A DNA stretch of 64,000 bases from an uncultured bacterium (GTDB lineage Bacteria; Bipolaricaulota; Bipolaricaulia; UBA7950; UBA9294), in contig CBDUVB010000002.1 of the NCBI GenBank assembly GCA_965370555.1, positions 39,467 through 103,466 on the forward strand, read 5' to 3'. Positions 40,173 through 58,473 of this stretch are shown here, in pieces. Numbering within the stretch: the first letter of the stretch is position 1; each line of letters starts with the position of its first letter. The notes under the pieces are model-generated. The model was not told the DNA's origin. It saw nothing but the letters and a program-made list of their open reading frames with translations, and ran no database searches. A program made the translations under genes and the position numbers.

Positions 40173-40390
40173 AGTGAGTAATTTTACTCAAAGTCTTGAG
40201 TAAAATCAACTCGAACGATAGTTACCCCCATTGCTAGTCGCAACTATCTCCTGCAAATCAGGATTGCCACGCGCGCTTCCAGAGATACTCTCAAATTCCG
40301 AAAACGCCAAGAATGAAGATCTGACCACAGCTCCCCCTGGCCTTCTGTCGCACGTCGGGAGTGCTGATATTCGTTGCTGCGTGGGAAGAT

Positions 40391-40657
40391 TCAGCTCTCT
40401 TCGTCGTATGGTAGCTTGGGGAGTTGCCTGAGCGCTGCTACGAAGCGCTTGCGGTCGTAGTTTTCGTTTTGCTTGAGAACGTTGTAGAGTTCGTGGACAA
40501 CGACTGTGCCGATCAATTCCACGGCTTCCTCCCTTGAGAAGCCCTCTTTGATCAACCGTCTCAATGTCTGTCGCGTTTCTGGCGGATCGTTGTCGCGGAT
40601 CTGGTTCCCAACGACCTTCAGTATTATCTCCCGGCGCCTTTTCTGGTCTTCGTCCAT
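40391..40657 (-). CDS. Hypothetical small basic protein (about 88 aa)
   Basis: Start chosen at internal ATG (MDEDQKRRREIILK...); upstream part of the ORF-track call is Arg-rich low complexity. Confidence 0.35.
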   Translation of the reverse strand: MDEDQKRRREIILKVVGNQIRDNDPPETRQTLRRLIKEGFSREEAVELIGTVVVHELYNVLKQNENYDRKRFVAALRQLPKLPYDEES

Positions 40658-40782
40658 ACGCCCTCTTTCTTGCGCTCGCGTCTTTCGGTCTCTCCAGCGG
40701 TTCTGAGATCTTCTTCGCACTCCGACTGAACGGATGGTAGTGCAGACCAAGACCGTTTTGCAACTGATCTAATGCGTCGCTG

Positions 40783-42093
40783 TCAGGTCTTGTCTTTTGA
40801 CTTCTCGTGACTCATTTCACTGCTTCGCCAAAGCGTAGTCACCGGCAAGGCATACAGATTTGAGCCGAAAGGAACGGGTTGATCACCGGTATAGAGAACG
40901 ATGCCGCGCAGGAAGCGGTCACCCAACAAGTCACTGAGGTACTTCAACCCCTTAAAGTCGCCACTCTTGACCGTTGATGAGGCCTTGACCTCAATCCCCA
41001 CGACCTTACCGGCAGGGTTCTCCAGCACTATGTCCACTTCCTGTCCTTTTCGCGTGCGAAAGTGGAAGAACTCGGGCTGAATCCCGCTCCAGCTAGCTTG
41101 CTTTCTTAGCTCCATGATGACGAAGTTCTCCAGCAGGGGACCAAAGGTATTTGGATCGGATTTGATCCGCTCTTCGTTCAACCCTGTTAGGTGGGCCAGC
41201 AAGCCGGTGTCATTCAGAGCTACCTTTCGTGAACGGATGAGCCTCTTGCCAAGGTTGGACGACCAAGCAGGAAGTGGCTGAAATAAGAAAGTCATTTTGA
41301 ACAACGCTATGTAACGCTTCGCGGTACTCTGTGGTAGGCCAAGGCTGTTGGCAAGTTCTGAGTAGTTCATCAGCGAGCTAGCGCGCGCTGCCAACAAGGA
41401 AAGCAGGCGGGGCATCATAGTGAGGTGTTCTATGTTCGCCAGGTCTCGAATCTCGCGTTGGACAATGGTGGTAACATACGAGCGGAACCAGGCACTGCGC
41501 CTGCTCACAGATGATTTTCCTACCATTTCAGGGTAACCACCGGTTAGTACACGTTTGATAAGCTCGTCTCTACTGAGATTACTAGCGGCAAATTGCGACA
41601 GTTTGCTAGCGAATATTCGATTTACGAAATCTTCCCTTTGCTTCTCTAGCTCACCTTGCGAAAAGGGCGAAAGAGTCAGGATTTCCATTCTGCCAGCGAG
41701 CGATTCCGATAGCTTAGGCAGGAGCAAAGGATTCGCCGAGCCAGTGAGCAAGAAGCTGCCGGGTACGCGGTTGCGATCGACTGCAGCCTTGATGGCTAAG
41801 AACAGCTCGGGAGCTCGTTGCACCTCATCGAGGACCACAGGACCATCAAAACCAGTCAAGAAACCCGTGGGATCACTGCGTGCAGCGGAAAGCACTGCGG
41901 CATCATCGAGGGTGATGTAGCGTGCCGGATGCGCTTCTCTTGCCAACCATTGCATTAATGTGCTCTTGCCCGTCTGCCTGGCACCGTTAAGCAAGACAAC
42001 GGGAGTATCCGACAGTGCTTCCAGGATAGCTGGCGTGATACTCCGTGGGATCATGAGAAGATTATAGCAACCGACAGGGTGCATTTCAACCAC
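40783..42093 (-). CDS. AAA family ATPase (AAA_14 + DUF4143 architecture), paralog of 38955..40172
   Basis: 436 aa (GTG start; alternative ATG at about 42052 giving MIPRSITPA...); Walker A GARQTGKSTL, Walker B VVLDEVQRA. Confidence 0.75.
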   Translation of the reverse strand: MVEMHPVGCYNLLMIPRSITPAILEALSDTPVVLLNGARQTGKSTLMQWLAREAHPARYITLDDAAVLSAARSDPTGFLTGFDGPVVLDEVQRAPELFLAIKAAVDRNRVPGSFLLTGSANPLLLPKLSESLAGRMEILTLSPFSQGELEKQREDFVNRIFASKLSQFAASNLSRDELIKRVLTGGYPEMVGKSSVSRRSAWFRSYVTTIVQREIRDLANIEHLTMMPRLLSLLAARASSLMNYSELANSLGLPQSTAKRYIALFKMTFLFQPLPAWSSNLGKRLIRSRKVALNDTGLLAHLTGLNEERIKSDPNTFGPLLENFVIMELRKQASWSGIQPEFFHFRTRKGQEVDIVLENPAGKVVGIEVKASSTVKSGDFKGLKYLSDLLGDRFLRGIVLYTGDQPVPFGSNLYALPVTTLWRSSEMSHEKSKDKT

Positions 42094-42110
42094 TCAGTGG
42101 TGGATTAGCA
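42066..42110. promoter_or_regulatory. Two copies of a 15-bp near-palindrome AACCACTSAGTGGTT spaced 21 bp, at the 5-prime end of the AAA ATPase gene (operator-like)
   Basis: ttcaaccactcagtggtggattagcaaccactcagtggttaatt. Confidence 0.4.
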
Positions 42111-42365
42111 ACCACTCAGTGGTTAATTCGCCCGAAAGGAAGAAGAGCTCGACACACACTATCAATTAGCTGGGTGAGACTCGTATCAACAGTGCCTTGC
42201 GGCAGAAGATCACTGTTCCGTCTTGTTTGCTACAGGGCAAACATCTCCTGGAGGACCAGGAGTGAACCTCCCCGCCTACAAGGCGGGGAGGTTCACTCCT
42301 TCTTCGCGGTATGCTTCTCTTGCAAGAGTAATTGACCAGCTACCTGTTTCGCCTATAATACTTTC

Positions 42366-43610
42366 ATGGGAAGAGTGTACAAGAACCGGGACTCACAGAA
42401 GAGGCTCAGCCGAAAAGGTGCCGGTGAGCGGATGTCACTTGCTCCGGAGGAGCTTGTACATCATGGGTGGATGTGGGACAGGACGCCGGTGACCCTCCGC
42501 TCCGTTCAGCCCGAAGATGCACCGGCGTTATGCGCCATGTTTCGTGCTTGTAGCCCAAAGAGCCTTTATCTTCGTTTTGAGCGTCAGTTGAACGAGATCT
42601 CCCTCGATCAAGCTGTTCAACTATGCTCTGTTGATCACGAGAATGAAATAGGCATCGTGGCTGAGATCAAGGAGGCTGGATCTCATAAACTCATTGGGTT
42701 AGGACAGCTGTTCGCCGATCCGGACCACGGGACGGCCGAGTACGCGGTACTCGTGGCCGATCCTTGGCAAGGGAAGGGCCTGGGGAGCAAGTTTACTGAC
42801 TTTTGCTTTGAAATCGCGTGGCAATGGGGCGTCAAAAGGGTGGTGGGTGAGTTCTCTCCAAGTAACGTGCGAATAATCCGTATCCTCCAATCCCGGGGCT
42901 TTCGCTTGCAGCGTGACGGGCAGGAGCAAGTCGTGTTTGCGGAGAAGACCCTCGAGGACCTGGTCTGGATCGCTAAGAGAGGTGAGGCAATGTCAAACAT
43001 GAAGTGGCGCAAATCTCTGCGCCCCATGATCAACGAAGCCAGAGAGGAGCTGACGCTGGTTAGCCCCCAAGAACTAGCCCGTAGGGGAGGTCTGACTTTC
43101 CAGGCCGGCCGGTTGGAGCTTCCTCTACTGGGAAGAGTGTACTCGATCCGCTGGCCGGAGTTGGTGCTCACTGCGCCAGACGGCGAGGCCTGCCCGGAAG
43201 AACTACAGATCCTCCTGCTCGATTACCTGAAAAATGGAGACGGTACACCCCCCACAGGTCGGTGGATTGGCTTTCGCGAGTTGGCCGATGGAGGATTCTA
43301 CTGGCGGGCATTCCAAGGATATTCGGGTGATCAACTGGTCCGAGATCTGGCCGGTAACATCGAAGCCTTCCATCGAGCGACGAAAAGGCTAGGAGGAGAA
43401 CCACTGGACATGGGAGACGCTTCTTATACCTTCCGCACGCTGCCGCAGCTGCCGATGGCGGTGGTCTGGTGGGCAGGCGATGAGGAGTTTCCTGCAGAAG
43501 CGACCGTGTTGTTCGCTGAGACGGCCGGTCACTATCTCCCTACTGATGGTCTGGCAATTCTTGGTCGAATGCTATGTCGAAAACTGGCCAACTTAGCGAG
43601 GGAAGCATGA
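42366..43610 (+). CDS. GNAT N-acetyltransferase fused to DUF3786 domain (DUF3786 is typical of CODH/ACS clusters)
   Basis: 414 aa (likely start MSLAPEEL at about 42432); GNAT acetyl-CoA motif VLVADPWQGKGLGSKF; C-terminal 200 aa resembles DUF3786 proteins encoded in acs operons. Confidence 0.55.
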   Translation: MGRVYKNRDSQKRLSRKGAGERMSLAPEELVHHGWMWDRTPVTLRSVQPEDAPALCAMFRACSPKSLYLRFERQLNEISLDQAVQLCSVDHENEIGIVAEIKEAGSHKLIGLGQLFADPDHGTAEYAVLVADPWQGKGLGSKFTDFCFEIAWQWGVKRVVGEFSPSNVRIIRILQSRGFRLQRDGQEQVVFAEKTLEDLVWIAKRGEAMSNMKWRKSLRPMINEAREELTLVSPQELARRGGLTFQAGRLELPLLGRVYSIRWPELVLTAPDGEACPEELQILLLDYLKNGDGTPPTGRWIGFRELADGGFYWRAFQGYSGDQLVRDLAGNIEAFHRATKRLGGEPLDMGDASYTFRTLPQLPMAVVWWAGDEEFPAEATVLFAETAGHYLPTDGLAILGRMLCRKLANLAREA

Positions 43611-44410
43611 AGCTTGCCGTAGCTGGGAAGGGCGGGGTGGGCAAGACTACTCTAGTGGCACTGCTTGCTCGTGAGGCCGTAACCCGTGGCTATCGAGTGA
43701 TTGCGGTAGATGCCGATTCCGATGCCAATCTTGCCATGACCCTGGGATTCCCCGAACCGATCATTCCGTTAGCAAAAGAGTGGGATCTGATTGCCGACCG
43801 GGCCGGCACCGGTGGGCTGATCAAATTGAACCCCACTGTGGACGACATCCCAGACCGCTACTCGGTTGAGCAGGACGGAATCCGGCTGCTTGTTCTCGGA
43901 GGCGTCCGCCAAGGTGGTGGGGGCTGCGCGTGTCCGGCCAACGCTCTCCTGCACTCCCTCCTCCGCCACCTCTTCCTTCGCCAAGGGGAGGTCGTCTTAG
44001 TGGATATGGAGGCGGGCATCGAGCACCTTGGCCGTGGTACGGTGCAGGGGGTAGATGCTCTGATCGTTGTTGTAGAGGGCGATCGCCGCTCATTGGAGAC
44101 AGCAGCGAGGATCGTCCACTTAGCCCACGAGATTGGCCTTGATCGGATTCTCGCAGTAGGAAACAAGATCCGCCAACCCGAGGAAGAAGCGCTCATCCGC
44201 GAAGGGCTCCCGGATGGCATCCCTCTTCTGAGTGTACTTTCTTACCTGGAAGAAATCCGAGCGACTGGCCTTTCAGGTAATCCTCACGAAGGGTCTTCCC
44301 CGCCGGCCGTTCAAGACCTCTTTTCGCTTCTGGAAGGGCGGCTGGGCTCCGCCCCGTATCGTCAGAGCCCAGAGTATCCTTCTAGTTGTTGTTACGAACC
44401 ACGGCCCTAA
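43607..44410 (+). CDS. cooC: CO dehydrogenase/ACS nickel-insertion ATPase CooC (AcsF-type), copy 1
   Basis: Deviant Walker A AVAGKGGVGKTT (MinD/ParA class) and CxC metal motif GGCACP; ATGA overlap with upstream gene. Confidence 0.85.
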   Translation: MKLAVAGKGGVGKTTLVALLAREAVTRGYRVIAVDADSDANLAMTLGFPEPIIPLAKEWDLIADRAGTGGLIKLNPTVDDIPDRYSVEQDGIRLLVLGGVRQGGGGCACPANALLHSLLRHLFLRQGEVVLVDMEAGIEHLGRGTVQGVDALIVVVEGDRRSLETAARIVHLAHEIGLDRILAVGNKIRQPEEEALIREGLPDGIPLLSVLSYLEEIRATGLSGNPHEGSSPPAVQDLFSLLEGRLGSAPYRQSPEYPSSCCYEPRP

Positions 44411-44519
44411 TTTGGCAGGATCTTCTCAACGTGCTATATTGCTTTGGAATATGACTGCGTGCAGGCCTATGCTTGCGAGCCACCGCAGGGAAGGATGTTC
44501 TTTTAGGAGGTAATAGATT

Positions 44520-46739
44520 ATGTCGAGGATCATCGCGACGGCGGCCATCCGAGGCGCTCACAGCTACGTCGAGCAGGCAAAACAAGAGCTTGACAAGACA
44601 ATCGAGGCATTCGGACCGGAGAAGAATGTCGAGTTTCCTAACACTGCGTACTACCTCCCCATGATCTTAGCTCTCATGGGTCTTGAGGTGAAGACCATAG
44701 GAGACGCGCAAAAAGCTTTGGAGCATGCCGAACGGCTCCTTTCACCGGTACCGACCAGCCAGTTGTGGGTTCCCTATCTTGGCTCTACTCTGGATGCAGG
44801 AATTGCCACCCTGATTGCCGAGGAGATCATCGAGGCACTGAAATACGTCAACGGTCTTGAGCCAGAGGAGCCGTGGCTCGGTTTTACCGACGATGCGACC
44901 CTGAGGACCCAGGGGATCAAGCTCGTCGATGGGCGGATGCCTGGCTTTGCCGCCTGTGTGGGCGCGCTTCCAACTAATGAACAAGCAGTTGAACTTGCAA
45001 GGTCCCTCCAAGAACGAAACATCTTGGTCTTCATGGCTTCCAGCACCAATGGGCACTCGATGGCCGAGCAGTTGGCCGAAGAGGGAGTGGAGATGAACTG
45101 GGACACATTCCTCGTTCCCTACGGCAAGGATACGTCCGCTTCGGTGCACGCGCTGAATTTCGCCGTACGTGCGGCAATGACCTTTGGCGGGATCAAGCCC
45201 GGAGATCTCAATGCGGCTCGGAAGATCCTGCTCTATAACAAGGATCGCGTTTACGCCTTTGTCCTTGCCCTGGGAGCGGATCTTGATCCGCAGGAGAACG
45301 GTGGCCAGCTCCTCACCGACGAGAAATATGCCACCGCAGCGGGGGCGATCAACTTTGGCTTCCCCATCATCTCCGATGTCGAGATCCCCCAGATCCTGCC
45401 GCGGGGAATCTGCACTTACGAACATGTCGTCTCCGGCATTCCGCGAGATGCGATTGTGAACAGGGCCGTCGAGGTCCGCGGACTTAAACTCAAGATAAGT
45501 GAAATCCCTATCCCTGTTCCCTACGGTGCTGGCTTTGAGGGCGAGCGGGTGCGAAAGGAGCAGATGCACGTCCAGTTTGGCGGCAAGTATACGGATGCGT
45601 TTGAGCTAGTGCGCGGTAGGTCAATGGATGAGGTGGAAGATGGCAAGATTGAACTGATCGGTCCAGACATCGATGAGGTCGAAGAAGGGAGCGCACTTCC
45701 GTTAGGCGTCATCGTGGAGGTCGCTGGCCGGGACTTCAAGGAAGACTTCGAAACGGTCCTCGAACGGCGAATCCACGAGTTCACCTCCTGGGCCTACGGT
45801 GTCTTCCACATGGGCCAACGCGCGATCGTTTGGGCCCGGATCAGCAAGGAGGCCTTCGCTAAGGGCTTTCGTCTTACCCATTACGGTGAAATCCTCGTGG
45901 CTAAGATGCACGAGGAGTTCTCCGGGATCCTCGATAAGCTTCAGGTCACGATCATCACCGATGCGGAGAAGCTGAGAGAGCCTCTCGAGAAGGCAAGAGT
46001 GATCTACCACCAGCGGGACGAGCGGATTATGGGGATGCAGGATGAAGACATCGATACCTTCTACTCTTGTGTCCTTTGCCAGTCATATGCCCCGGATCAC
46101 GTCTGCATCGTCACCCCAGAGCGGCTCGGCCTCTGTGGGGCCTACACCTGGCTAGACTGTGCCGCAAGCTACGAGATGAAACCCCACGGGCCGAACCAGC
46201 CGGTGAAAAAAGACGAAGTGATCGATTCGGTGAAGGGCCAGTGGAAGGGAGTCAATGCGTACCTCGAAGTCGCCTCCAACGGGAACCTAAAGCGGTTCAA
46301 TGCCTACTCGATGATGGAGGATCCGATGACCAGTTGCGGCTGTTTTGAATGCATCACCGCCATCCTTCCCGAGACAAATGGAGTGATGATCGCCAACCGC
46401 GAGTACACGGAGATGACTCCAATTGGGATGAGCTTCTCCACCATGGCCGGCCAGATTGGTGGCGGGATCCAGACCCCTGGCTTCATCGGGATGGGGAAGC
46501 TCTACATCACAAGTAAGAAATTCATCTCCGCGGATGGGGGAATCGAACGGGTCGTGTGGATGCCCAAACAGCTCAAGGAGGAGATCTCCGAGCGGTTACT
46601 AAAGCGTCTCGAAGAGATTGGAAAGCCTGATCTGTTCGACAAAATCGCCACCGAGGAGAACGCCGCAACAAGTGAGAAACTCGTGGAGTTCCTGCAAAAG
46701 GTGAACCATCCGGCGCTTAAAATGGAACCAATGATGTAA
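44520..46739 (+). CDS. acsB: Acetyl-CoA synthase (CO-methylating), AcsB / ACDS beta subunit
   Basis: 739 aa; A-cluster ligand motif SCGCFECI and overall ACS length/order. Confidence 0.9.
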   Translation: MSRIIATAAIRGAHSYVEQAKQELDKTIEAFGPEKNVEFPNTAYYLPMILALMGLEVKTIGDAQKALEHAERLLSPVPTSQLWVPYLGSTLDAGIATLIAEEIIEALKYVNGLEPEEPWLGFTDDATLRTQGIKLVDGRMPGFAACVGALPTNEQAVELARSLQERNILVFMASSTNGHSMAEQLAEEGVEMNWDTFLVPYGKDTSASVHALNFAVRAAMTFGGIKPGDLNAARKILLYNKDRVYAFVLALGADLDPQENGGQLLTDEKYATAAGAINFGFPIISDVEIPQILPRGICTYEHVVSGIPRDAIVNRAVEVRGLKLKISEIPIPVPYGAGFEGERVRKEQMHVQFGGKYTDAFELVRGRSMDEVEDGKIELIGPDIDEVEEGSALPLGVIVEVAGRDFKEDFETVLERRIHEFTSWAYGVFHMGQRAIVWARISKEAFAKGFRLTHYGEILVAKMHEEFSGILDKLQVTIITDAEKLREPLEKARVIYHQRDERIMGMQDEDIDTFYSCVLCQSYAPDHVCIVTPERLGLCGAYTWLDCAASYEMKPHGPNQPVKKDEVIDSVKGQWKGVNAYLEVASNGNLKRFNAYSMMEDPMTSCGCFECITAILPETNGVMIANREYTEMTPIGMSFSTMAGQIGGGIQTPGFIGMGKLYITSKKFISADGGIERVVWMPKQLKEEISERLLKRLEEIGKPDLFDKIATEENAATSEKLVEFLQKVNHPALKMEPMM

Positions 46740-46757
46740 AGGAGGAAAAATAGCGTC

Positions 46758-48104
46758 ATGGCCAAACTGACTGGCATCGAGATTTATAAACTTCTGCCGA
46801 AGACTAACTGCGGCGATTGTAACTTTCCAACGTGTATGGCCTTCGCCATGCAGGTGGCAGCGAAAAAGGCCGCGCTTGATAAATGCCCCCACGTCTCCGA
46901 AGAGGCCCAAACTGCCTTGGGCGAGGCGCAAGCGCCTCCGATGTGGACCGTCAAGATCGGTACCGGTGAGCAAGAGTTCGTCACCGGCGGGGAGACGGTC
47001 CTTTTCCGTCACGAGGAGAAATTCTACAATCCCACAGGTATCGCGATCAAGGTAGCTGCCAGCCTCTCACCGGAGGAATTGGACAAACGCATTGAGAAGA
47101 TCAATCGACTCCACTTTGTTCGCGTGGGCGAGGAGATCGGGGTGAATCTCATCGCCCTCGATCACGATGGAAGCGATGGTACCCAATACGCGAAAGCTCT
47201 CGCGCGGGTTAGGGAAAAGTCGGACTTGCCACTGGTTCTCCTTTCCTCTGATCCGCAAGTTCTAGGTCTGGCACTCGAGGCCGCAGCGGGCGAACGGCCA
47301 CTCGTTTGGGCCGCTACGCAGGAGAACTGGGAGGCGATGGCCGATCTTGCCGGAAAGTTCAAGGTCCCTCTGGGAGTCCGTGCTGAGACCCTCGAGGGAT
47401 TAGCCGAGTTGACAGGAAAGATCAAGGAAAAAGGGGTGGAGGATCTGGTGATTGAACCCCCTGGGGTAGATCTCCTCGACAATCTTACCAAGCTTACCCA
47501 GCTTCGGCGGCTGGCCCTGGAGAAGGTCTTCCGGCCGCTTGGGTATCCGACGCTGGTATTAACGGATAGTACCTCGCCATCGGAGGAGGCGAGCGAAGCA
47601 ACGGCCTACATCTGTCGCTACGCAGGTATTGTGGTGATGAACGGGACGGAGAGTTGGGAGATACTCCCGCTTCTCACCACCCGCCAGAACATCTATACCG
47701 ACCCTCAGGTCCCCAACGCCATCGAGGCCAAGCTCTACGACATCGGCGAACCGGGGCCCGATGCGCCGGTCCTCTTTACGACCAACTTCGCCCTTACTTA
47801 CTTCACCGTTGCCGGGGAGGTGGAGAACAGCAAAGTCCCGACTTACATCTGTGTAGCCGATACGGAGGGGCTGGGAGTTTTAAACGCCTACGCAGACGAC
47901 AAGCTGACCGCAGAGAAGGTGATCAAGACGGTTCAAGAGCAAGGGGTGATGGAGAAGGTCAGTCACAACAGGCTGATTATCCCTGGGTTGGTCGCTGTGC
48001 TGCGAATGGAAATTCAGGAGGACTCCGGCTGGGAGGTGATCGTCGGTCCTGAGGACGCCGCCGGGATCCCTCACTTTTTGAAGACCGAATGGAGTCCTAA
48101 CTAG
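46758..48104 (+). CDS. acsC: Corrinoid iron-sulfur protein large subunit (AcsC)
   Basis: 448 aa; N-terminal 4Fe-4S motif CGDCNFPTCMAF...C, TIM-barrel corrinoid-binding remainder. Confidence 0.9.
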   Translation: MAKLTGIEIYKLLPKTNCGDCNFPTCMAFAMQVAAKKAALDKCPHVSEEAQTALGEAQAPPMWTVKIGTGEQEFVTGGETVLFRHEEKFYNPTGIAIKVAASLSPEELDKRIEKINRLHFVRVGEEIGVNLIALDHDGSDGTQYAKALARVREKSDLPLVLLSSDPQVLGLALEAAAGERPLVWAATQENWEAMADLAGKFKVPLGVRAETLEGLAELTGKIKEKGVEDLVIEPPGVDLLDNLTKLTQLRRLALEKVFRPLGYPTLVLTDSTSPSEEASEATAYICRYAGIVVMNGTESWEILPLLTTRQNIYTDPQVPNAIEAKLYDIGEPGPDAPVLFTTNFALTYFTVAGEVENSKVPTYICVADTEGLGVLNAYADDKLTAEKVIKTVQEQGVMEKVSHNRLIIPGLVAVLRMEIQEDSGWEVIVGPEDAAGIPHFLKTEWSPN

Positions 48105-48111
48105 GCAAAAG

Positions 48112-50061
48112 ATGGATGCAGTCAAGGTCACATTCTATCCTGATGGCAAGGTCGTCGAGGCAAAGCGGGGGACGACCTTGCTTGAGATCGCTAAGGATAC
48201 GGGGATTTTCATCGCCTCGATCTGCGGCGGGGACGGAATTTGCGGTAAGTGCCGCCTGATCATTAAGGATGGCGAGGTCAAGGCAAGTCCCACGACCCAT
48301 CTTAGTCGTGAGGAGATTCAAGCCGGCTACGTCCTCGCCTGCCAAACCAGGGTGTTTGGGGACGTTGAAGTACTCATCCCTCCCGAGTCGCGGGCTGAGG
48401 GGGCCCAAATTCTCGTCGATGCGGACGCCCAGCGCTTCCGTGCCCTCTACCCTGGCACGGCCGAGCCGGCCTTCTTTCGCCCCGATCCCCTCACTCAGAA
48501 GCTCTATCTCGAACTCCCTCCCCCAAGCCTGCAGGATAACCTCGGTTGCCAAGAGCGCCTGTTTCGGGAGATCCGCCGACATGTGGATGCGCCGGTCATG
48601 CAGATGGGGCTCAAGGTGCTTAGAACCCTCCCTGACCTTCACCGTGACAGGGCCTGGAAGGTCACCGTCACCCTGGGCCGGCGGGGCGGGACAGTCGAGG
48701 TGATCCAGGTAGAACCGGGGGACCACGCTTCCCAAAACTATGGTGTGGCAGTCGATGTAGGAACCTCGACCGTCGTGGTCCACCTCGTCAATCTTGTCAC
48801 GTCGGAGACGATCGATGCGGAGGCCTGCTACAACTCCCAGATCCCTTTCGGGGAGGAGGTAACGCGGCGGATCATCCACGCCGAGCGGGAGGGATCAAAA
48901 GTCCTCCGCGAAGCTGTTGTCAGTGACATTAACAACCTGATCTCCACGCTTATATCCAGAAATCCGGTCGAATTGAACGAGGTCACCACGCTGGTTGCCG
49001 CTGGTAACACGACGATGCTCCACTTTTTGCTGGGACTGGATCCGTCCCTGATCCGCAAGAGTCCCTACATCCCGGCTGCCACGGTTCCACCACCGGTCCG
49101 CGCTGCCGAGGTGGGAATCAAGATCAACCCCCGTGGGCTCCTCTACGCCATGCCCTCAATCGGCAGTTGGGTCGGGGGCGACATCACCGCCGGTATCCTG
49201 GCGAGTGGCCTCTATCAGACCGATCGGCTGACGATGCTGATCGACATCGGAACCAATGGAGAGATCGTCCTTGGAAACCGGGAGTGGATGCTCTCCTGTG
49301 CCACTTCGGCCGGCCCGGCGTTCGAGGGAAGTGGGGTACGGTGCGGGATGAAGGCAACAAGCGGGGCAATCGAGCGGGTGGAGACCTTAGCCGATGAAGA
49401 GATCTCGTACCGGACCATTGGGGATGTCAAGCCCAAGGGACTGTGCGGCTCGGGGCTGATCGATGGGATCGCCTCGCTCTTCCAAGCAGGGATTATCGAT
49501 CGATCGGGGAATCTACTCCCCTCCCGCTCGGCCTACGTGCGCGAGCGAGAGGGCCAACTGGAGTTCGTTCTCGTTCCAGGGGAGCGGACAGAGACTGGGA
49601 GGGACATTGTGGTCACCCAGCCCGATATCGAGAACGTCTTGCGTGCCAAGGCGGCGATCTATGCCGGAGCAAAGATCCTTCTGGAATCGACACACCACGG
49701 GTTTGAGGATATTGAACAACTCTTCATCGCTGGCGGGTTTGGCAACTACCTCGATCGAGGAAAGGCAATCCTCCTCGGGCTGGTCCCCGACATTCCCTTA
49801 GAGCGGATCCGATTTGTGGGGAACACCTCACTCATCGGGGCAAAGATGGCCCTACTTTCGAGCGAGGCGTACGAGCAGTGTTTCGAGATTGCCAAGAGCA
49901 CTACGTACTATGATCTCATCACCTACCCTAACTACTATGATGAGTTCATGTCGGCGAAATTCTTGCCACACACCGATCTTGACCTTTTCCCAACAGTTGC
50001 TCGCTGGCTAAACAAAGACCGGATCGTTACTGAAGAACTGCCGTTGAAGGAGAGGGACTAG
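48112..50061 (+). CDS. Corrinoid activation/regeneration protein RACo-like (N-terminal 2Fe-2S ferredoxin + ASKHA ATPase)
   Basis: 649 aa; plant-type ferredoxin CGGDGICGKC...C at N-terminus, large ASKHA-fold C-terminal part; position between acsC and acsD as in other acs operons. Confidence 0.7.
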   Translation: MDAVKVTFYPDGKVVEAKRGTTLLEIAKDTGIFIASICGGDGICGKCRLIIKDGEVKASPTTHLSREEIQAGYVLACQTRVFGDVEVLIPPESRAEGAQILVDADAQRFRALYPGTAEPAFFRPDPLTQKLYLELPPPSLQDNLGCQERLFREIRRHVDAPVMQMGLKVLRTLPDLHRDRAWKVTVTLGRRGGTVEVIQVEPGDHASQNYGVAVDVGTSTVVVHLVNLVTSETIDAEACYNSQIPFGEEVTRRIIHAEREGSKVLREAVVSDINNLISTLISRNPVELNEVTTLVAAGNTTMLHFLLGLDPSLIRKSPYIPAATVPPPVRAAEVGIKINPRGLLYAMPSIGSWVGGDITAGILASGLYQTDRLTMLIDIGTNGEIVLGNREWMLSCATSAGPAFEGSGVRCGMKATSGAIERVETLADEEISYRTIGDVKPKGLCGSGLIDGIASLFQAGIIDRSGNLLPSRSAYVREREGQLEFVLVPGERTETGRDIVVTQPDIENVLRAKAAIYAGAKILLESTHHGFEDIEQLFIAGGFGNYLDRGKAILLGLVPDIPLERIRFVGNTSLIGAKMALLSSEAYEQCFEIAKSTTYYDLITYPNYYDEFMSAKFLPHTDLDLFPTVARWLNKDRIVTEELPLKERD

Positions 50062-50832
50062 ATGCCGTTTACGATCGCAGTGGCAGGAAAAGGGGGAACG
50101 GGTAAGACAACCGTCTCCGGGCTCCTCATCCAATACCTGCTTCAGAAAGGTCAGAGGCCGATCCTCGCGGTCGACGCCGATCCCAACGCAAACCTTGGCA
50201 ACCTGCTGGGGCTAGAGGTTGAAATGACCGTGGGTGGCCTGCAAGCCGGGACGCTCAACCAGATCCACGATCTCCCCGCCGGGGTTCCCCTGAACCGCTA
50301 TATGGAATATGAGCTGCACCAAGCCCTGGTGGAGGGAGTGGGCGTCGATCTCTTGGTGATGGGCCGTGGGGAGGGGGACGGCTGCTACTGCGTGGTCAAC
50401 CATATCTTGCGGCATTACCTTGACAAGATCCAAGAAAACTATCGCTATGTGGTCCTGGACAACGAGGCGGGGATGGAGCACCTCTCTAGACACCTCACCC
50501 AGGGGGTCGATTTGCTTCTTATCGTAAGTGATGCAAACCCAGTGGCGGTCCGCTCTGCAGCCCGAATCAATGCCCTGGCAAGCGAGTTGAATTTGAGGAT
50601 AAAAGAACGCTACTTGGTGCTGAACAATCTACGCGGCGAGGTCCCCGAGCGGGTGCAAGAGGAGATCAACCACTCGGAGTTAGAGGTATTGGGGGAGATT
50701 CCCCATGATGAGGCTCTAGCGCGGCTCAATCTGGAAGCACGGCCTCTTTGTGACTTGCTGCCAGTGGCTAGGGCATTATCGGCAATGGAGTCGATGCTCG
50801 GAAAGGCGTTGCGGAAGGAGGAGAAAGTTTGA
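50062..50832 (+). CDS. cooC: CooC-type nickel-insertion ATPase, copy 2
   Basis: AVAGKGGTGKTT deviant Walker A; GDGCYC metal motif. Confidence 0.85.
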   Translation: MPFTIAVAGKGGTGKTTVSGLLIQYLLQKGQRPILAVDADPNANLGNLLGLEVEMTVGGLQAGTLNQIHDLPAGVPLNRYMEYELHQALVEGVGVDLLVMGRGEGDGCYCVVNHILRHYLDKIQENYRYVVLDNEAGMEHLSRHLTQGVDLLLIVSDANPVAVRSAARINALASELNLRIKERYLVLNNLRGEVPERVQEEINHSELEVLGEIPHDEALARLNLEARPLCDLLPVARALSAMESMLGKALRKEEKV

Positions 50833-51806
50833 CAATGGAAATCCCTGATGTGAAGAAAAGTTGGACGAATCCCATCCATGCAGTCACGATCGGAGCCACC
50901 GCTAAAGAGGGTGGCACACGGACTTCCACCGTTACGGTGGGAGGTGAAACCACACTCCCGTTCCACCACTTCGAAGGGGAGATGCCGAACGCTCCGGTTA
51001 TCGGCATGGAAGTGTGGGACATCCCTGCAGAGGGCTGGCCTGACCCGATTAAAGAACCATTTGCGGACGTAATGGCGGATCCCGGCGCGTGGGCAAAGAA
51101 ATGTGTGGATGAGTACGGCGCTCAACTCATCTGTCTGCGTCTTAAAGGATGCGACCCAAACGGAAAAAATAAGTCCCCCGCAGAGGCGACCGAGGCTGCC
51201 AAACGCGTTCTCGAATCGGTCGGGGTTCCCCTCATCCTCTGGGGCTGCGGCAATACAGATAAGGACGCCGAAGTCTTTCCAGCGGTGGCCGAGGTGGCCT
51301 CCCAAGAGAACTGCCTCCTTGGAACGATTACCGAGGGTAACTACAAGACCTTGACCGCCGTTAGCACGGCGTACAACCACAAGCTGATTGCCGAATCACC
51401 GGTGGACATAAATTTGGCCAAGCAGGTCAACATCCTCGCGATGGATGTCGGGTTCCCCCCGGAGAATATCCTGATCTATCCCAGCACTGGCGCACTCGGT
51501 TACGGGATCGAGTACGTCTACTCGATCATGGAGCGGCTCCGAATCGCGGGCCTTAAAGGGGACAAGGTCGTTGCCATGCCGATTCTGTGTGATATCGGGA
51601 TCGAGGTGTGGGGGGTGAAAGAGGCCAAGGCTCCTGAAACTGAAGTCCCTGAATGGGGGGAGGAAAAGCGTCGCGGCCCGCTGTGGGAGGCTGCCACGGC
51701 CTATGTCTATCTCCTTGCTGGAGCCGATATTTTGATCATGCGCCACCCGGAGGCAGTGCGAATGACGAAAGAAACAATCAAACGCTTGATGGGAGGTGGG
51801 GCATGA
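50829..51806 (+). CDS. acsD: Corrinoid iron-sulfur protein small subunit (AcsD)
   Basis: 325 aa; typical AcsD TIM-barrel sequence; 4-bp overlaps with flanking genes. Confidence 0.85.
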   Translation: MTMEIPDVKKSWTNPIHAVTIGATAKEGGTRTSTVTVGGETTLPFHHFEGEMPNAPVIGMEVWDIPAEGWPDPIKEPFADVMADPGAWAKKCVDEYGAQLICLRLKGCDPNGKNKSPAEATEAAKRVLESVGVPLILWGCGNTDKDAEVFPAVAEVASQENCLLGTITEGNYKTLTAVSTAYNHKLIAESPVDINLAKQVNILAMDVGFPPENILIYPSTGALGYGIEYVYSIMERLRIAGLKGDKVVAMPILCDIGIEVWGVKEAKAPETEVPEWGEEKRRGPLWEAATAYVYLLAGADILIMRHPEAVRMTKETIKRLMGGGA

Positions 51807-52600
51807 TCCTAATTGGGGAGCGGATCAACGCCGGGTTTAAGGATATCGCCCGCGCGATCCGAGAAAAGGACCCAGCCCCGGTGAGAAGCTGGGCCGAGAA
51901 GCAGGCGCAGCGCGGGGCCGACTACCTTGACGTCAATATCGGCGCCGCGTCCAGAGATCCCGAGGACATGGCCTGGCTGGTGAAGACGGTTCAAGAGACC
52001 GTGCCCACCAAGATCTCTGTGGATTCTACAAACCTTGAGATCGTCGAAGCCGGTCTGGAGGCAGTGGACGGCCGCGGAGCAATGATCAACTCCACCACTG
52101 CCGATCCCGGAAAGCTCGAACGACTGGTCCCATTAGCGGTGAAGTACAATGTGAGCCTGCTCGGAGTGGCGATGGACAAACGGGGGAGCCCACCGGACGT
52201 CGAGCGGAGGGTGGAGAACGGTGCGATGATCTTCGCGGCTGCCGTGGAAGGCGGCCTTGAGCCGGATCAGATTATCCTCGACCCCATTCTCATGCCGCTT
52301 AAGTTCATGCAGGAGCAGGCGAAGAACGTGCTGGAGGCGATCGGTCAATACACGATCCTCTCCGATCCGCCACCGCACATCTCGGTTGGGCTCTCTAATA
52401 TAGCCTCCAAGGCCGCCGAGCGGGGACTGATCCTTCGCACCTTTCTCGTGATGGCCATAGGACAAGGGCTCGATGCGGCGATCTGTAACGTCATGGATGA
52501 TGAGCTCATCGCGGCGATTGTAACGGCAGAGCTGATCCTAAACAAAGAGATCTATAGCGATTCCTACGTGCGAGCCTTTCAGGCACGGCGTGGGCTTTAG
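51803..52600 (+). CDS. acsE: Methyltetrahydrofolate:corrinoid iron-sulfur protein methyltransferase (AcsE)
   Basis: 265 aa from ATG 51803 (MILIGERINAG...pterin-binding barrel); ORF-track start 51653 lies inside acsD and is rejected. Confidence 0.85.
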   Translation: MILIGERINAGFKDIARAIREKDPAPVRSWAEKQAQRGADYLDVNIGAASRDPEDMAWLVKTVQETVPTKISVDSTNLEIVEAGLEAVDGRGAMINSTTADPGKLERLVPLAVKYNVSLLGVAMDKRGSPPDVERRVENGAMIFAAAVEGGLEPDQIILDPILMPLKFMQEQAKNVLEAIGQYTILSDPPPHISVGLSNIASKAAERGLILRTFLVMAIGQGLDAAICNVMDDELIAAIVTAELILNKEIYSDSYVRAFQARRGL

Positions 52601-52612
52601 AAGGAGGACAAG

Positions 52613-54511
52613 GTGACGCAGGAAAGGCCAAGAAGCATCGACAAAGCCTCTCAGCAGATGCTGAAAGTCGCTAAAGAAAACCAGTATACCACCGCCTGGG
52701 ATCGCTTTGAGGCAATGCAGCCCCAGTGCAAGTTCGGAAGCGAAGGGGTCTGTTGTCGGATCTGCAGCATGGGACCCTGCCGGATCATCCCGGGCAGAAC
52801 AGATCATGGGATCTGTGGAGCTAACGTGGACACGATCGCCGCACGGAACCTCATTCGGATGATCGCAGCCGGAGCTGCAGCTCACTCTGACCACGGACGA
52901 GATGTAGCTCATGCGCTCCTGTTGGCGGCCCAGGATGAGTCAAGCGATTACGAGATTAAGGATCCGGTTAAGCTCCGTGAGGTGGCGAACGTCTACGGGA
53001 TTGGTCTCGATGGTGCCAGCGATCGAGAGATTGCCGTAGCCCTGGCCGAGCGAGCCCTAGCCAACTTCGGCCAGCAGGAGGGGGAGCTGGAGCTGGCACA
53101 CCGCGCGCCCAAAAGAAGGGTCGAGCGCTGGCAGGAATTGGGGATTATGCCTCGTGGTATCGACCGCGAGATCGTCGAGATCATGCACCGCACTCACATG
53201 GGCGTCGATACCGATTATCGGAACATCATGCAGCAGGGGTTACGCTGTGCCCTCTCCGACGGCTGGGGTGGGTCGATGATCGCCACCGAGCTCCAAGATG
53301 TCCTCTTTGGGACTCCCGCGCCCATAAGGGCCACCTGTAACCTGGGTACCCTGGAGAAGGATCAGGTGAACATCGTTGTCCATGGCCATGAACCGGTTCT
53401 CTCTGAGATGATCGTGGTGGCGGCTCAGGACCCTGAACTCCTGCAGCTCGCCGACAAGGTAGGTGCCAAGGGGATCAACATTGCCGGGATGTGTTGCACG
53501 GCTAATGAGATCCTGATGCGCCATGGGATCCCTGTCGCCGGAAACTTCCTTCAGCAGGAGCTGGCGATGATGACAGGAGCGGTCGATCTGATGATGGTCG
53601 ATGTGCAATGCATTATGCCTGCGCTATCCGACCTCTCCCAGCGGTTCCATACCAAGCTCGTCAGCACCTCACCCAAGGCAAAGTTCCCCGGGGTGGAGCA
53701 CGTTGAGTTCTCCGAGGAACACGCTTTGGATATCGCTAAACAGCTCCTCCGCATGGGGGTAGAGAATTTTGCAAATCGCGACAAGGCACCGTTCATCCCC
53801 CAGGAGACGATGGATCTAATCGGTGGTTTTACTGCAGAGTCGGTGTTCAACTTTCTCGGCGGGACCTATCGGGCTACATATCGACCCTTAAACGATGCGA
53901 TCATCGATGGCCGACTACGCGGTGCCGCGGGGATTGTTGGCTGCAACAACCCCAAGATCACCCATGACTTCGGCCACGTGGAGATGGCAAAAGAATTGAT
54001 AAAAAACGATGTCCTGGTAGTGGCTGGCGGCTGCTCGGCGATCGCCGATGCCAAGGCTGGTTTGATGAAGCCGGAGGTGGCGTTTGAGCTTGCCGGTAAG
54101 GGCTTACAGGAGATCTGCGAGGCCGTGGGTATTCCGCCGGTCTTGCACCTAGGCTCCTGCGTCGATAACTCGAGAATCTTGATGACTCTTGCCCACGTGG
54201 TCAACGAGGGAGGTCTTGGCGAGGACATCTCCGATCTTCCGGTCGCCGGGGCAGCTCCGGAGTGGATGAGTGAAAAGGCCGTTTCGATTGGGTTCTACTT
54301 CGTCGCTTCAGGGGTGTTCACCACCCTCGGGATGCCACTCCCAGTTCTCGGGTCTGAAAATCTCACCAGACTTGTGACCGAAGAATTGGAGGGAACCGTC
54401 GGCGGAAAGTTCGCCTTCGAACCCGACCCGGTAAAGGCCGCCCATCTGATGATCGACCACATCGACAAGAAACGAGCCGCACTCAAACTTAAGGATGTGA
54501 TGTATGCGTGA
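52613..54511 (+). CDS. cooS: Ni-dependent carbon monoxide dehydrogenase catalytic subunit (CooS/AcsA)
   Basis: 632 aa; B/D-cluster motif CCRICSMGPCRI and C-cluster ligands. Confidence 0.9.
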   Translation: MTQERPRSIDKASQQMLKVAKENQYTTAWDRFEAMQPQCKFGSEGVCCRICSMGPCRIIPGRTDHGICGANVDTIAARNLIRMIAAGAAAHSDHGRDVAHALLLAAQDESSDYEIKDPVKLREVANVYGIGLDGASDREIAVALAERALANFGQQEGELELAHRAPKRRVERWQELGIMPRGIDREIVEIMHRTHMGVDTDYRNIMQQGLRCALSDGWGGSMIATELQDVLFGTPAPIRATCNLGTLEKDQVNIVVHGHEPVLSEMIVVAAQDPELLQLADKVGAKGINIAGMCCTANEILMRHGIPVAGNFLQQELAMMTGAVDLMMVDVQCIMPALSDLSQRFHTKLVSTSPKAKFPGVEHVEFSEEHALDIAKQLLRMGVENFANRDKAPFIPQETMDLIGGFTAESVFNFLGGTYRATYRPLNDAIIDGRLRGAAGIVGCNNPKITHDFGHVEMAKELIKNDVLVVAGGCSAIADAKAGLMKPEVAFELAGKGLQEICEAVGIPPVLHLGSCVDNSRILMTLAHVVNEGGLGEDISDLPVAGAAPEWMSEKAVSIGFYFVASGVFTTLGMPLPVLGSENLTRLVTEELEGTVGGKFAFEPDPVKAAHLMIDHIDKKRAALKLKDVMYA

Positions 54512-54514
54512 GCC

Positions 54515-54733
54515 ATGGCAAGTATGAGTGGGATGCCGACGAGGGAGGAGCTAGAGCAGGAGATCGTGGCCTTGGAGGAGGAGTTGCGAGAGCGGAAGGC
54601 GGCCCTTCCCATTCATTCCGTCCCCCCCCCGCACTTTGAGGCGATCGAGGAGTTGGAGGAGCGGATCGGGGCAAAAAGGGAGGTGTTGAAGAATCTGAAA
54701 GATCATGGGAACGACGATATTAAGTTTGGATGA
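54515..54733 (+). CDS. Hypothetical small acidic coiled-coil protein (72 aa) containing a C9 homopolymer
   Basis: ORF tightly following cooS; contains ccccccccc at 54620-54628 encoding VPPP. Confidence 0.3.
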   Translation: MASMSGMPTREELEQEIVALEEELRERKAALPIHSVPPPHFEAIEELEERIGAKREVLKNLKDHGNDDIKFG

Positions 54734-54899
54734 TAAGGAGAGAATGGACCTGGAGACTATCATTGTGGATAGGGATCGGGATGAGGCACTCAGGTTCATC
54801 CTGAAGGTGCTCGAGCCGAAGCTCCGGGCAAAGGGGAAGGGTGCCCCAGATACGAAAAAAGGGATGGGTATCTCCGGCTAAGAGGAGGCCTGGTTTATG

Positions 54900-55088
54900 A
54901 TGTGTCTGGCAAGCGTTCAGAAGGGGAAGGGGACTGAGAAGGAGAACCTCCTAGAGGAGGTAGCGCTTATAAGGTTCGAGGGGAAGAAGTTGCTTCTGAG
55001 AACCCTTTTCGGCGAGGAAAGGGCCATCAAGGCCAAGATCAAGGAGATCGACTTCATGAACTCCACGGTCCTCATCGAGGAGGATTAG
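54900..55088 (+). CDS. cooT: CooT-family small nickel-binding protein
   Basis: About 62 aa starting MCLASV...; N-terminal Met-Cys, size and beta-rich pattern (IRFEGKKLLLRTLFGEE) consistent with the CooT family found in CODH clusters. Confidence 0.5.
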   Translation: MCLASVQKGKGTEKENLLEEVALIRFEGKKLLLRTLFGEERAIKAKIKEIDFMNSTVLIEED

Positions 55089-55820
55089 ATGAAGGTCATC
55101 GTCGCGGGAAAGGGCGGCTGTGGGAAGAGCACTGTCTCTACCCTCCTGGCTAAGGCATTGGCTAAGAGAGGAAGCAGGGTACTGGTGATCGACACCGATG
55201 AGTCCAATTTCGGGCTTCATACGCATTTAGGGCTAAAGCGGCCCGAGGATTTCATGAACTACTTCGGTGGCAAGAAAGTCCTATTTGAGAAAGTCAAGTC
55301 CATTCAGAAAAGATGGGAAATAGATGAACTCCCCGCAGAGTATCTAACAGAGAAGGGAAACATAAAACTTCTCGCAATGGGAAAGATCTACGATTTCGGC
55401 GAAGGGTGCGCCTGCCCGATCAACGCCCTCTCCTCCAGGTTCCTGGAGATCCTGGAGCTAAAAGATGACGAGTTCCTAATTGCGGATACCGATGCGGGGA
55501 TCGAGCACCTCGGCCGAGGCGTGGAGAAGGGTTGCGATCTCATCTTGGTGGTTGTGGAGCCCTCACAGGAGTCGATCGGGCTCGCCAACAGGATCGCCGC
55601 GATGGCCAAGAGCATCGACAAACCGATCTACTACATCCTAAATAAAACCGATAGTAATACGGAAGCCCTCCTCCTTGAAGCCCTGGATGGGAGCAGAGTT
55701 ATCGCGGCTGTCCCCCAGGATGAGCGGATCTTCCGCTACGGCTTAGAGGGAAGAGAGCTTGACCTTAACGTTGAAGGGATCGAAGAGCTGGTGGACTTCC
55801 TCTGCGGGCTTAAAGATTAG
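55089..55820 (+). CDS. cooC: CooC-type nickel-insertion ATPase, copy 3 (more divergent)
   Basis: IVAGKGGCGKST deviant Walker A; GEGCACP metal motif. Confidence 0.8.
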   Translation: MKVIVAGKGGCGKSTVSTLLAKALAKRGSRVLVIDTDESNFGLHTHLGLKRPEDFMNYFGGKKVLFEKVKSIQKRWEIDELPAEYLTEKGNIKLLAMGKIYDFGEGCACPINALSSRFLEILELKDDEFLIADTDAGIEHLGRGVEKGCDLILVVVEPSQESIGLANRIAAMAKSIDKPIYYILNKTDSNTEALLLEALDGSRVIAAVPQDERIFRYGLEGRELDLNVEGIEELVDFLCGLKD

Positions 55821-57850: not shown

Positions 57851-57879
57851 CGATACTCCCTTTTCTGCTTACGGTGCCA

Positions 57880-58461
57880 TTAAATCATCGATAGAGCCTC
57901 ACTGCGCGTCGCTAGGTTGGTTTTAAACAACCCGCGAAGCGCTGTGGTCACCATCTTAGTCCCCGGTTTTTGTATCCCGCGAAGCGTCATACATAGATGC
58001 TCAGCTTCCAGGCGCACCAACACGCCATGAGGTCTAAGTCTTCTCATAAATACGTCGGCCAACTGTGAGGTCATGCGCTCCTGGAGCTGCGGACGGCTGG
58101 AGGCGATCTCCACCGCCCGGGCCAGTTTGCTGGCGCCAACGATCCTCTTGTCTTTCGGGATATATATCACAGCGGCCCTTCCAATGAACGGCAGGAGATG
58201 ATGTTCGCATACAGAGTGAAACTGGATATTTCGCACGGCAACCATCTCGTCGTAGTCGGCGCGGAAGAAGGTGGCGATCACATCTCCTGGGTCACGGTTT
58301 ATGTCCCGAAAGAAGTCATCGATAAACATCGAGCTGACACGCCGTGGGGTACCACGTAACCCCTCCTGAGTTAGGTCAAGATCCAGGCCTTCCATCAGCA
58401 GACGTACAGCCTGTTCCACCTTCTGCCTGTCCATTTCACCTTTTCGATGTATCCGCATCAA
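57880..58461 (-). CDS. folE: GTP cyclohydrolase I
   Basis: 193 aa; FHSVCEHHLLPF and zinc-ligand motifs. Confidence 0.9.
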   Translation of the reverse strand: MMRIHRKGEMDRQKVEQAVRLLMEGLDLDLTQEGLRGTPRRVSSMFIDDFFRDINRDPGDVIATFFRADYDEMVAVRNIQFHSVCEHHLLPFIGRAAVIYIPKDKRIVGASKLARAVEIASSRPQLQERMTSQLADVFMRRLRPHGVLVRLEAEHLCMTLRGIQKPGTKMVTTALRGLFKTNLATRSEALSMI

Positions 58462-58473
58462 AACCGATCTTTG

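Follow-up and report, generated by a model that had tools for sequence, protein, structure and literature searches.

A lineage-typical CODH/ACS gene cluster of Candidatus Bipolaricaulota with three old CooC paralogs and a young GNAT–DUF3786 gene fusion

[quoted passage not shown] Here we describe a 64,000-nucleotide stretch of DNA from an uncultured bacterium (contig CBDUVB010000002.1; the whole stretch is called the window throughout), in which positions 42366-55820 of the + strand hold a standard bacterial-type acs cluster, that is, the CODH/ACS carbonyl branch, of Candidatus Bipolaricaulota (Acetothermia). The assignment to Bipolaricaulota follows from the names carried by identical or near-identical proteins. 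The enzyme set is identical to that of the Moorella and C. hydrogenoformans clusters, and the Moorella-type placement of two CooC-type genes, the first heading the cluster and the second standing between RACo and acsD, is shared as well. In contrast to these clusters, cooS has moved to the cluster end, a DUF3786 gene stands before the head CooC and carries a fused GNAT domain, and a CooT–CooC tail together with two small open reading frames (ORFs) follows cooS. Taken as a whole, we read the locus with a probability of about three in four as a lineage-typical acs cluster that combines three ancient, module-bound CooC paralogs with a young stop-loss fusion of GNAT and DUF3786.

The + strand ORFs of this region were scanned against Pfam and NCBIfam. 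Every gene name and the complete gene order proposed in a first-pass annotation of this DNA were recovered with small corrections only, and the domain assignments also bear out the carbonyl-branch Wood-Ljungdahl identity of the cluster. The acetyl-CoA synthase AcsB with the A-cluster (44520-46739) matches NF040764 with 1021 bits (cut-off 800) and the Moorella enzyme 1OAO with 696 bits. It is followed by the large subunit of the corrinoid iron-sulfur protein, AcsC (46758-48104), the reductive activator of the corrinoid protein, RACo/AcsV (48112-50061), the small corrinoid iron-sulfur protein subunit AcsD (50829-51806) and the methyltetrahydrofolate:corrinoid methyltransferase AcsE (51803-52600), the start of which was corrected to 51803. 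The catalytic Ni-CODH subunit CooS/AcsA (52613-54511) matches TIGR01702 with 694 bits (cut-off 478). Its nearest solved relatives are 6T7J and the CODH subunit of the Clostridium autoethanogenum CODH/ACS as well as other stand-alone CODHs (6VWY, 6B6V), with the Moorella enzyme behind them; we take these nearest solved CODHs to belong to clade E. For a view across species, one genome per species was scanned with the DUF3786 profile, which yielded 80 loci that were annotated against the window proteins. Among the species-level Bipolaricaulota/Acetothermia loci, the order DUF3786-cooCa-acsB-acsC-RACo-cooCb-acsD-acsE-cooS is the rule.

All three CooC copies, here termed (a), (b) and (c) in gene order, are CbiA/MinD-type ATPases that carry the deviant Walker A motif GKGGxGK[ST] with the signature lysine and a CxC motif near residue 107, features that they have in common with C. 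hydrogenoformans CooC1 (3KJE). CooC(a) (43607-44410) has the P-loop GKGGVGKT and the CxC motif CAC, CooC(b) (50062-50832) GKGGTGKT and CYC, and CooC(c) (55089-55820), located directly after the cooT stop codon, GKGGCGKS and CAC. The most likely start of CooC(a) is the ATG at 43607 rather than 43574, so that it shares an ATGA overlap with the DUF3786 stop. CooC1 is the top solved relative of all three copies (E-values of 7e-45, 1e-20 and 3e-20), and copy (a) is clearly the closest with 157 bits, against 78 and 76 bits for the far more distant copies (b) and (c), which reach E-values of about 1e-20. A neighbour-joining tree of the CooC homologues from the DUF3786 species loci, the CooC(c) relatives and CooC1 as characterised reference resolves three deep clades, with CooC1 attached to clade a. 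As a side observation, CooC(a) ends in a C-terminal tail of about 20 amino acids (44330-44410) that closes with SSCCYEPRP including a Cys-Cys pair; neither CooC1 nor copies (b) and (c) have this tail, and its coding sequence is kept even in a pseudogene of a sister lineage described below.

Pairwise, the three proteins are just 33-37% identical at the amino-acid level and show essentially zero nucleotide similarity, so they are neither recent duplicates nor products of the assembly, a possibility that had been raised for checking, but distinct old paralogs. The idea that three CooC genes in one operon are unusual did not hold. CooC(a) and CooC(b) are at fixed positions in at least 26 Bipolaricaulota species loci, the arrangement RACo–cooCb–acsD is found in the window and at least 26 related loci, and since the CooT–CooC(c) tail is kept at 70-75% CooC(c) identity, three copies are typical of this Bipolaricaulota group. 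The further proposal of dedicated maturases for the A-cluster and the C-cluster plus a spare is compatible with our data, as CooC(b) occupies the AcsF position, CooC(a) groups with CooC1 and CooC(a) has decayed in a sister lineage, but it was overstated. In the scheme that we favour, CooC(a) would serve the CODH C-cluster in line with its grouping with CooC1, CooC(b) would insert nickel into the ACS A-cluster, and CooT and CooC(c) would form a nickel hand-off module that supplies CODH and overlaps in function with CooC(a). Each of the ancient CooCs is locked into a conserved module of its own, namely DUF3786–CooC(a), RACo–CooC(b)–AcsD and CooS–orf72–orfB–CooT–CooC(c).

The natural loss of one CooC bears on this division of labour. 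In the sister lineage (L003/L105, L106-L108, L104 and L012; at least five samples and one metagenome-assembled genome (MAG) from NCBI), CooC(a) is a pseudogene with the P-loop GKGEVGKT (L003 5337-5744, corresponding to window 43607-44410). Its reading frame ends at a stop after 29 codons, and about 440 nt, the CxC motif included, are deleted internally. On the same contig the orf–orfB–CooT–CooC(c) tail is intact. The coexistence of a decayed CooC(a) with an intact CooC(c) tail makes some redundancy among the CooCs likely, as far as this can be read from the genes, and provides the best support for the notion of a spare. A comparable tolerance is described for Eubacterium limosum, where a cooC2 frameshift was tolerated during growth under Ni-replete conditions (PMC7079680). 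The comparison with the sister lineage also exposes a mosaic. High similarity to sister lineages starts at about 42290, nucleotide identity is 92% over 42290-43911, drops to 65-71% over acsB–acsE (44348-52566; L003/L097, L012, L104-L108) and is back to 91-94% over cooS–cooC(c). This pattern identifies the acsB–acsE enzyme core as swapped by recombination. In the CooC tree, the CooC(b) of the sister lineage groups with versions labelled Fraserbacteria.

Downstream of cooS, the tail cooS–orf72–orfB–cooT–cooC(c) is intact in three close relatives (L092, L093 and L097; CooC(c) 91-97% identical) and also in L094 (75%) and L178 (70%), the latter with only the orfB-type small gene. CooT (54900-55088), a predicted Ni-binding chaperone, matches PF10133 with 57.9 bits (cut-off 27) and C. 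hydrogenoformans CooT (6FAN) with an E-value of 3.8e-5. Its start is most likely the second ATG (54900), which yields MCLASV... and thereby the family-typical Cys2 shared with 6FAN; the relatives start with MCLASV or MCLANV. Cys2 is the nickel-binding residue of CooT (PMC6006190). A survey of CODH operons found CooT and candidate CooJ only in certain clade-E and clade-F operons, most of them linked to one-carbon metabolism (bioRxiv 10.1101/2025.09.14.676152). Compared with the CooCTJ system of Rhodospirillum rubrum with its order cooC–cooT–cooJ, the window follows the order small ORFs–cooT–cooC, with cooT directly followed by cooC downstream of cooS, and it lacks a His-rich CooJ, in the place of which orf72 and orfB stand without His or Cys motifs.

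Both small genes precede cooT. The first, orf72 (54515-54733; its start may be M4), belongs to no family, and judged by its conservation in the relatives it is a real small protein, predicted to be helical. The second, orfB (54705-54881; MGTTILSLDDKERMDLETIIVDRDRDEALRFILKVLEPKLRAKGKGAPDTKKGMGISG), overlaps the end of orf72, encodes 58 amino acids, had been missed so far and is unannotated; it matches no Pfam family and is conserved directly 5' of cooT even in L178, where CooC(c) is 70% identical. The His-rich tail of CooJ is absent from orf72 (three His in total) and orfB (no His), and a phmmer search of the PDB for a solved CooJ at E-values up to 10 gave chance coiled-coil matches only. With neither a His-rich tail nor CooJ similarity, orf72 was ruled out as CooJ.

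A poly-C tract had been pointed out in the small ORF after cooS. Nine C residues are indeed present in orf72, at 54622-54630 and not at 54620-54628, where they encode Pro-Pro-Pro. A homopolymer of nine bases within a coding region could in principle act as a slipped-strand switch for the small ORF and, by polarity, for cooT–cooC(c). We consider this very improbable: at this site, CCCCCCCGC and CCACCCCGC stand in two near-identical loci, in frame and of the same length, and across three near-identical loci the region varies by substitutions only and never in length. The same tract is found in both members of the orf72 protein cluster, and the more distant L094 (the 75% lineage) and L097 (the sister lineage) have SVRPAQ instead. 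By this comparison, C9 is a chance run of proline codons with no sign of slippage or switching.

The fused GNAT–DUF3786 gene at the head of the cluster (42366-43610, + strand) had been reported as one frame, and this is the case: a 414-amino-acid ORF without a stop between the domains. It is composed of a GNAT part with a Pat-type lysine acetyltransferase domain (42366-42953), a linker (E)DLVWIAKRGEA that represents translated former intergenic spacer (42954-42989), and a DUF3786 part that keeps its ancestral start codon M209 (42990-43610). The same protein or relatives with 88-99% identity were found in many independent JGI, ENA and NCBI assemblies. In a search of 5.8 billion proteins, the two-domain architecture was confined to four clusters at an identity of at least 88%; the other matches were stand-alone DUF3786 proteins of about 227 amino acids, stand-alone GNATs or a large Pat-like protein. 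Within the 90% cluster of the fusion, some members are separate proteins encoded on one contig.

These split alleles reveal how the fusion arose. In the DNA alignment, the GNAT gene of L009, L010 and L011 ends with ...AAG ATC CTC GAA TGA, and a spacer of about 60 nt follows that contains GAGGTGA 5 nt before the DUF3786 ATG. Relative to these three, the window and L003 share an identical 30-bp gap that includes the TGA, in otherwise collinear flanks, with the junction at 42954/42955. The fusion hence reads through 12 codons of the former spacer into M209 (...EKTLEDLVWIAKRGEAMSNMK... across the linker), and the DUF3786 Shine-Dalgarno motif GAGGTGA is kept at 42979-42985 (motif and ATG together span 42979-42992). 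A stop between the two halves, named earlier as the observation that would speak against a fusion, is thus absent from the window and the fused clade but present as TGA in sister strains. A DNA tree of GNAT–DUF3786 places every fused allele of 1179 nt (window/L098-L100, L003/L105/L106, L107/L108 and L012/L104) in one clade and the split alleles in the other. The deletion was a single event that has been inherited since; nucleotide divergence among the fused alleles reaches about 9%.

In the ancestral state, a single-domain lysine acetyltransferase gene of Pat type with transcription of its own would have stood directly 5' of DUF3786. One in-frame deletion of 30 bp took the GNAT TGA together with half of the 60-nt spacer, and the GNAT ORF has since continued via 12 spacer codons into DUF3786. 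As the ribosome-binding site and the ATG of DUF3786 survive, both the fusion and free DUF3786 could be made. Given that the source is a MAG and that the two genes are separate in some near-identical relatives, an artefact of sequencing or assembly, affecting either the fusion or the CooC copies as assembly duplicates, has to be considered as well. Its probability is practically negligible, since the same gap occurs in contigs of at least eight different samples and in an NCBI MAG, all in one clade, the deletion is in frame with collinear flanks, and the CooC copies are merely 33-37% identical.

Both halves of the fusion are under purifying selection, and neither is decaying: the GNAT has a pN/pS of 0.37 among the fused and 0.31 among the split alleles, and the fused DUF3786 one of 0.26 (the value for DUF3786 among the split alleles was left out as unreliable due to a 3-nt indel). 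AlphaFold predicts no packing between the domains of the whole fusion (predicted TM score, pTM, of 0.52), a disordered linker with a predicted local distance difference test score (pLDDT) below 50 for residues 199-210, and a disordered N-terminus (residues 1-21), and for DUF3786 alone it gives a pLDDT of 92.8. Each domain taken singly is modelled well, and GNAT and DUF3786 are accordingly predicted to be two independent domains, like beads on a string. From the alleles compared here, we regard the fusion as a young evolutionary accident that was kept and not as an old designed architecture.

The GNAT domain (PF13302/PF00583) covers residues 42-184 and has an intact acetyl-CoA motif, as had been noticed before, with the loop QGKGLG at residues 135-140 and the catalytic Glu in AEYAVLV at residues 124-130. 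Its best solved relatives are 9IT0/9ISQ, an 886-amino-acid 'Protein acetyltransferase' (5e-14), Streptomyces PatA (4NXY) and Sulfolobus Pat (3F8K). The domain aligns to residues 727-874 of 9IT0, with AEYAVLV opposite AEFAVLV, the Glu of which is residue 809 of the 886-amino-acid enzyme as counted on the alignment. The homologous domain with its conserved Glu and acetyl-CoA loop is thus shared with the Pat/PatZ enzymes, but the GNAT of the window is fused to DUF3786 and lacks their large N-terminal regulatory domain, which resembles an NDP-forming acyl-CoA synthetase; about 40 disordered residues precede the GNAT domain. Relatives at up to 47% identity are ORFs of about 900 amino acids that do have the Pat regulatory domain. 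By these alignments, the GNAT is a Pat-type protein lysine acetyltransferase domain that lost the regulatory domain of Pat. In this respect it resembles At2 of Clostridium ljungdahlii, also a single GNAT domain in an acetogen, which acetylates and inhibits FDH; CODH/ACS is acetylated in this organism, too (PMC7439476). By analogy to At2, the most likely targets of the GNAT are lysines in Wood-Ljungdahl or metallo-cofactor proteins, which it would acetylate with acetyl-CoA, the product of the pathway, and a role as acetyl-CoA-dependent feedback regulator would be plausible. As a possible Pat substrate in the window, an AMP-binding enzyme (29079-30716) was rejected: it looks like a FadD-type ligase and has no obvious PX4GK acetylation motif.

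A sigma-70-like promoter match (TTGACC-16-TATAAT, 42332-42359, + strand) ends 6 nt before the GNAT ATG at 42366, which suggests a leaderless or near-leaderless transcript. The pseudo-translation Y-x-x-F/Y-M-G precedes GNAT homologues, so the promoter arrangement is probably conserved, and the GNAT looks like a transcription unit of its own. Its neighbourhoods, obtained by a metagenome scan with the GNAT alignment, shift as identity falls. Homologues with at least 83% identity always stand upstream of DUF3786–cooC(a)–acsB; those at 56-64% are flanked by cobT/cobS/cobU on one side and hypF-hypD-hypE-hypA on the other, and those at about 50% are near metF/metV, fdhA/fdhD, FTHFS or RACo-like genes (also in L001/L002). 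In L015, a homologue at 45% identity is placed after DUF3786–cooC(a) and before Hdr-like genes. All these homologues reside in Wood-Ljungdahl or metal-cofactor neighbourhoods, and on this evidence the adjacency of GNAT and DUF3786 itself is young. Stand-alone GNAT homologues were also seen in Bipolaricaulota-like loci (L112-L118, L001/L002, L129 and L137), next to cobalamin and hyp genes or to fdhA–fdhD–mobA, metF/metV and FTHFS.

An adaptive origin of the fusion would give these data a different meaning. DUF3786 would dock on CODH/ACS or on the CooC1-type maturase, and the tethered GNAT would let acetyl-CoA control the complex via lysine acetylation, which corresponds to the role in acetyl-CoA sensing or modification suggested in the first-pass annotation. 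This would be in line with a fusion that was kept while it diversified into at least four sub-lineages and that shows purifying selection on its two halves, with Pat-type catalytic motifs that are intact, with the gene directly behind DUF3786–cooC(a) in L015, a GNAT from the same subfamily (45% identical, E-value 7e-48), and with the regulation of Wood-Ljungdahl enzymes by acetylation in C. ljungdahlii (PMC7439476). We nevertheless hold it to be unlikely, because AlphaFold finds no packing between the domains at a pTM of 0.52 and a disordered linker, the linker consists of spacer that is now translated, DUF3786 still has a Shine-Dalgarno motif and an ATG of its own, the fusion is confined to one clade of at least 88% identity among 3073 DUF3786 cluster representatives, and the more distant GNAT homologues adjoin hyp, cob, fdh or metF genes, not DUF3786. 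The kept accident thus remains our preferred explanation of the fused gene.

The DUF3786 half (PF12654; 167.9 bits, cut-off 27) covers residues 234-405 and profile positions 2-175 of 176, and it carries the conserved motifs FYxQAFQGYSG and HYLPTDGLAILG. When 1.84 billion cluster representatives were searched with the profile, 3073 DUF3786 proteins were retrieved, and nearly all of the best 150 are stand-alone proteins of 200-245 amino acids. The full-length profile match is common to these stand-alone proteins and the window, where the family forms the C-terminal half of the 414-amino-acid ORF. Other rare DUF3786 fusions were seen, one of 763 amino acids that combines a LacI HTH, a periplasmic-binding-like domain and two DUF3786 domains (P0231), and one of 466 amino acids with DUF3786 and a short-chain dehydrogenase (SDR; P0014). 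Among the papers searched for DUF3786 and PF12654, there was a single incidental mention and no discussion of the family. In 28 of the 80 species loci, DUF3786 is directly followed by CooC(a), and the ATGA overlap at the cluster head makes translational coupling of the two genes probable. This tight coupling across the phylum suggests that DUF3786 acts with the CooC(a) maturase or with its client. A 242-amino-acid gene upstream of a stand-alone DUF3786 in L006 was considered as a diverged GNAT and rejected, as it has no Pfam match.

Several observations weigh against the reading of the locus put forward here. The first group concerns CooC(c), homologues of which at 62-64% identity in other phyla (L095 7476-8762 and L096 7548-8744) have no CODH nearby but lie between a small PF04060 Fe-S protein with a long Gly/Arg-rich tail and an ArsR regulator; the CooC(c) clade may thus lack CODH specificity. 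The wider surroundings of these two genes include thioredoxin, Fur and disulfide-reductase genes. CooC(c) could then be no nickel insertase for CODH at all, but a member of a broader, strongly conserved CooC-like clade that works with small PF04060 Fe-S proteins in redox or metal homeostasis and stands beside cooT by chance. The homologues in L095 and L096, with their PF04060 and ArsR neighbours and no cooS, form a sub-branch of clade c in the CooC tree. We think this explanation improbable, given that here and in relatives down to 70% identity CooC(c) lies immediately 3' of cooT (cooS–small ORF(s)–cooT–cooC), that it keeps the CxC nickel motif, and that clade-E CODH operons with a link to one-carbon metabolism contain CooT together with CooC (bioRxiv 10.1101/2025.09.14.676152). 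A nickel hand-off module of CooT and CooC(c) is therefore retained as the favoured assignment.

The second group of points concerns DUF3786, which remains whole in the lineage with the CooC(a) pseudogene. In L038, L040, L045 and L046, three of which are labelled Fraserbacteria, it comes after cooS and has no CooC(a) next to it, and it has neither an acs nor a CooC neighbour in 48 of the 80 species loci, mostly from Chloroflexota. The conserved neighbours of those 48 genes are only housekeeping-looking membrane and peptidase genes, a picture partly obscured by spurious high-GC ORFs. By its distribution, DUF3786 has no strict tie to either CooC(a) or acs, which argues against an obligate partnership. 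Similarly, the neighbours of the distant GNATs vary (hypF/cobU, fdh, metF), and their position beside hyp, cob, fdh and metF genes makes a functional pair of GNAT and DUF3786 a weaker proposition. In addition, CooC(b) is assigned as AcsF by its gene position, we infer all the biochemical roles in our scheme from sequence, and the fusion protein is a predicted product that is known here from its DNA.

The gaps and flanks of the cluster add some further features. A second promoter-like site (TTGGCA-17-TATATT with TG, 44412-44440, + strand) lies in the 110-nt gap before acsB. An Rfam scan of the whole window gave no match, so there is no riboswitch in the gaps. A perfect inverted repeat of 20 bp with a 3-nt loop (42258-42300) is located just 5' of the promoter-like site of the GNAT, between it and the divergent upstream gene. 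On the minus strand upstream of the cluster (38955-42093), two AAA_14/DUF4143 ATPase genes enclose an unassigned 185-amino-acid ORF, and two tandem 22-nt repeats, each with the palindrome ACCACTCAGTGGT, are found at 42087-42130 at the start of one DUF4143 ATPase gene. At this upstream position, L012, L025, L101, L103 and L104 have an MttB-like gene and L003 has nikR–znuA–fmdE–ABC transporter genes, which indicates that the upstream flank has been rearranged among strains. On the other side, genes of the methyl branch converge on the cluster from the minus strand (56426-63569) and encode an MttB-like protein, GTP cyclohydrolase I (FolE), FTHFS and two tandem MetF–MetV pairs (MTHFR and DUF5981).

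Overall, the cluster is ordinary and lineage-typical, and the poly-C tract is trivial. Little new is learned about the pathway itself, as CODH/ACS clusters, CooC, AcsF and CooT are well known and Bipolaricaulota have already been described as acetogens. Modestly new is a clean and datable stop-loss gene fusion, the split and fused alleles of which are both extant and thus offer a ready-made experiment on the cooperation of GNAT and DUF3786. The same holds for the coupling of DUF3786, a family of about 3000 clusters, to a CooC1-type maturase across the phylum, and for the conserved small protein orfB before CooT–CooC that is missing from annotations. The natural loss of one CooC with retention of the other CooC module, together with the swapped enzyme core in the sister lineage, is also modestly new and bears on the question of which maturases CODH really needs. 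A more far-reaching idea, which we consider quite doubtful at present, is that a minimal Pat-type acetyltransferase of the Bipolaricaulota reads acetyl-CoA and tunes the Wood-Ljungdahl pathway. In that case, DUF3786 would act as a hitherto overlooked partner to the CooC1-type maturase or to CODH/ACS, with the acetyltransferase tethered to it in the fused clade, and orfB–CooT–CooC(c) would add a small accessory for CODH nickel insertion. If this were true, the fused clade would serve as a natural 'Rosetta stone' for a pair of uncharacterised components in the oldest pathway of carbon fixation.

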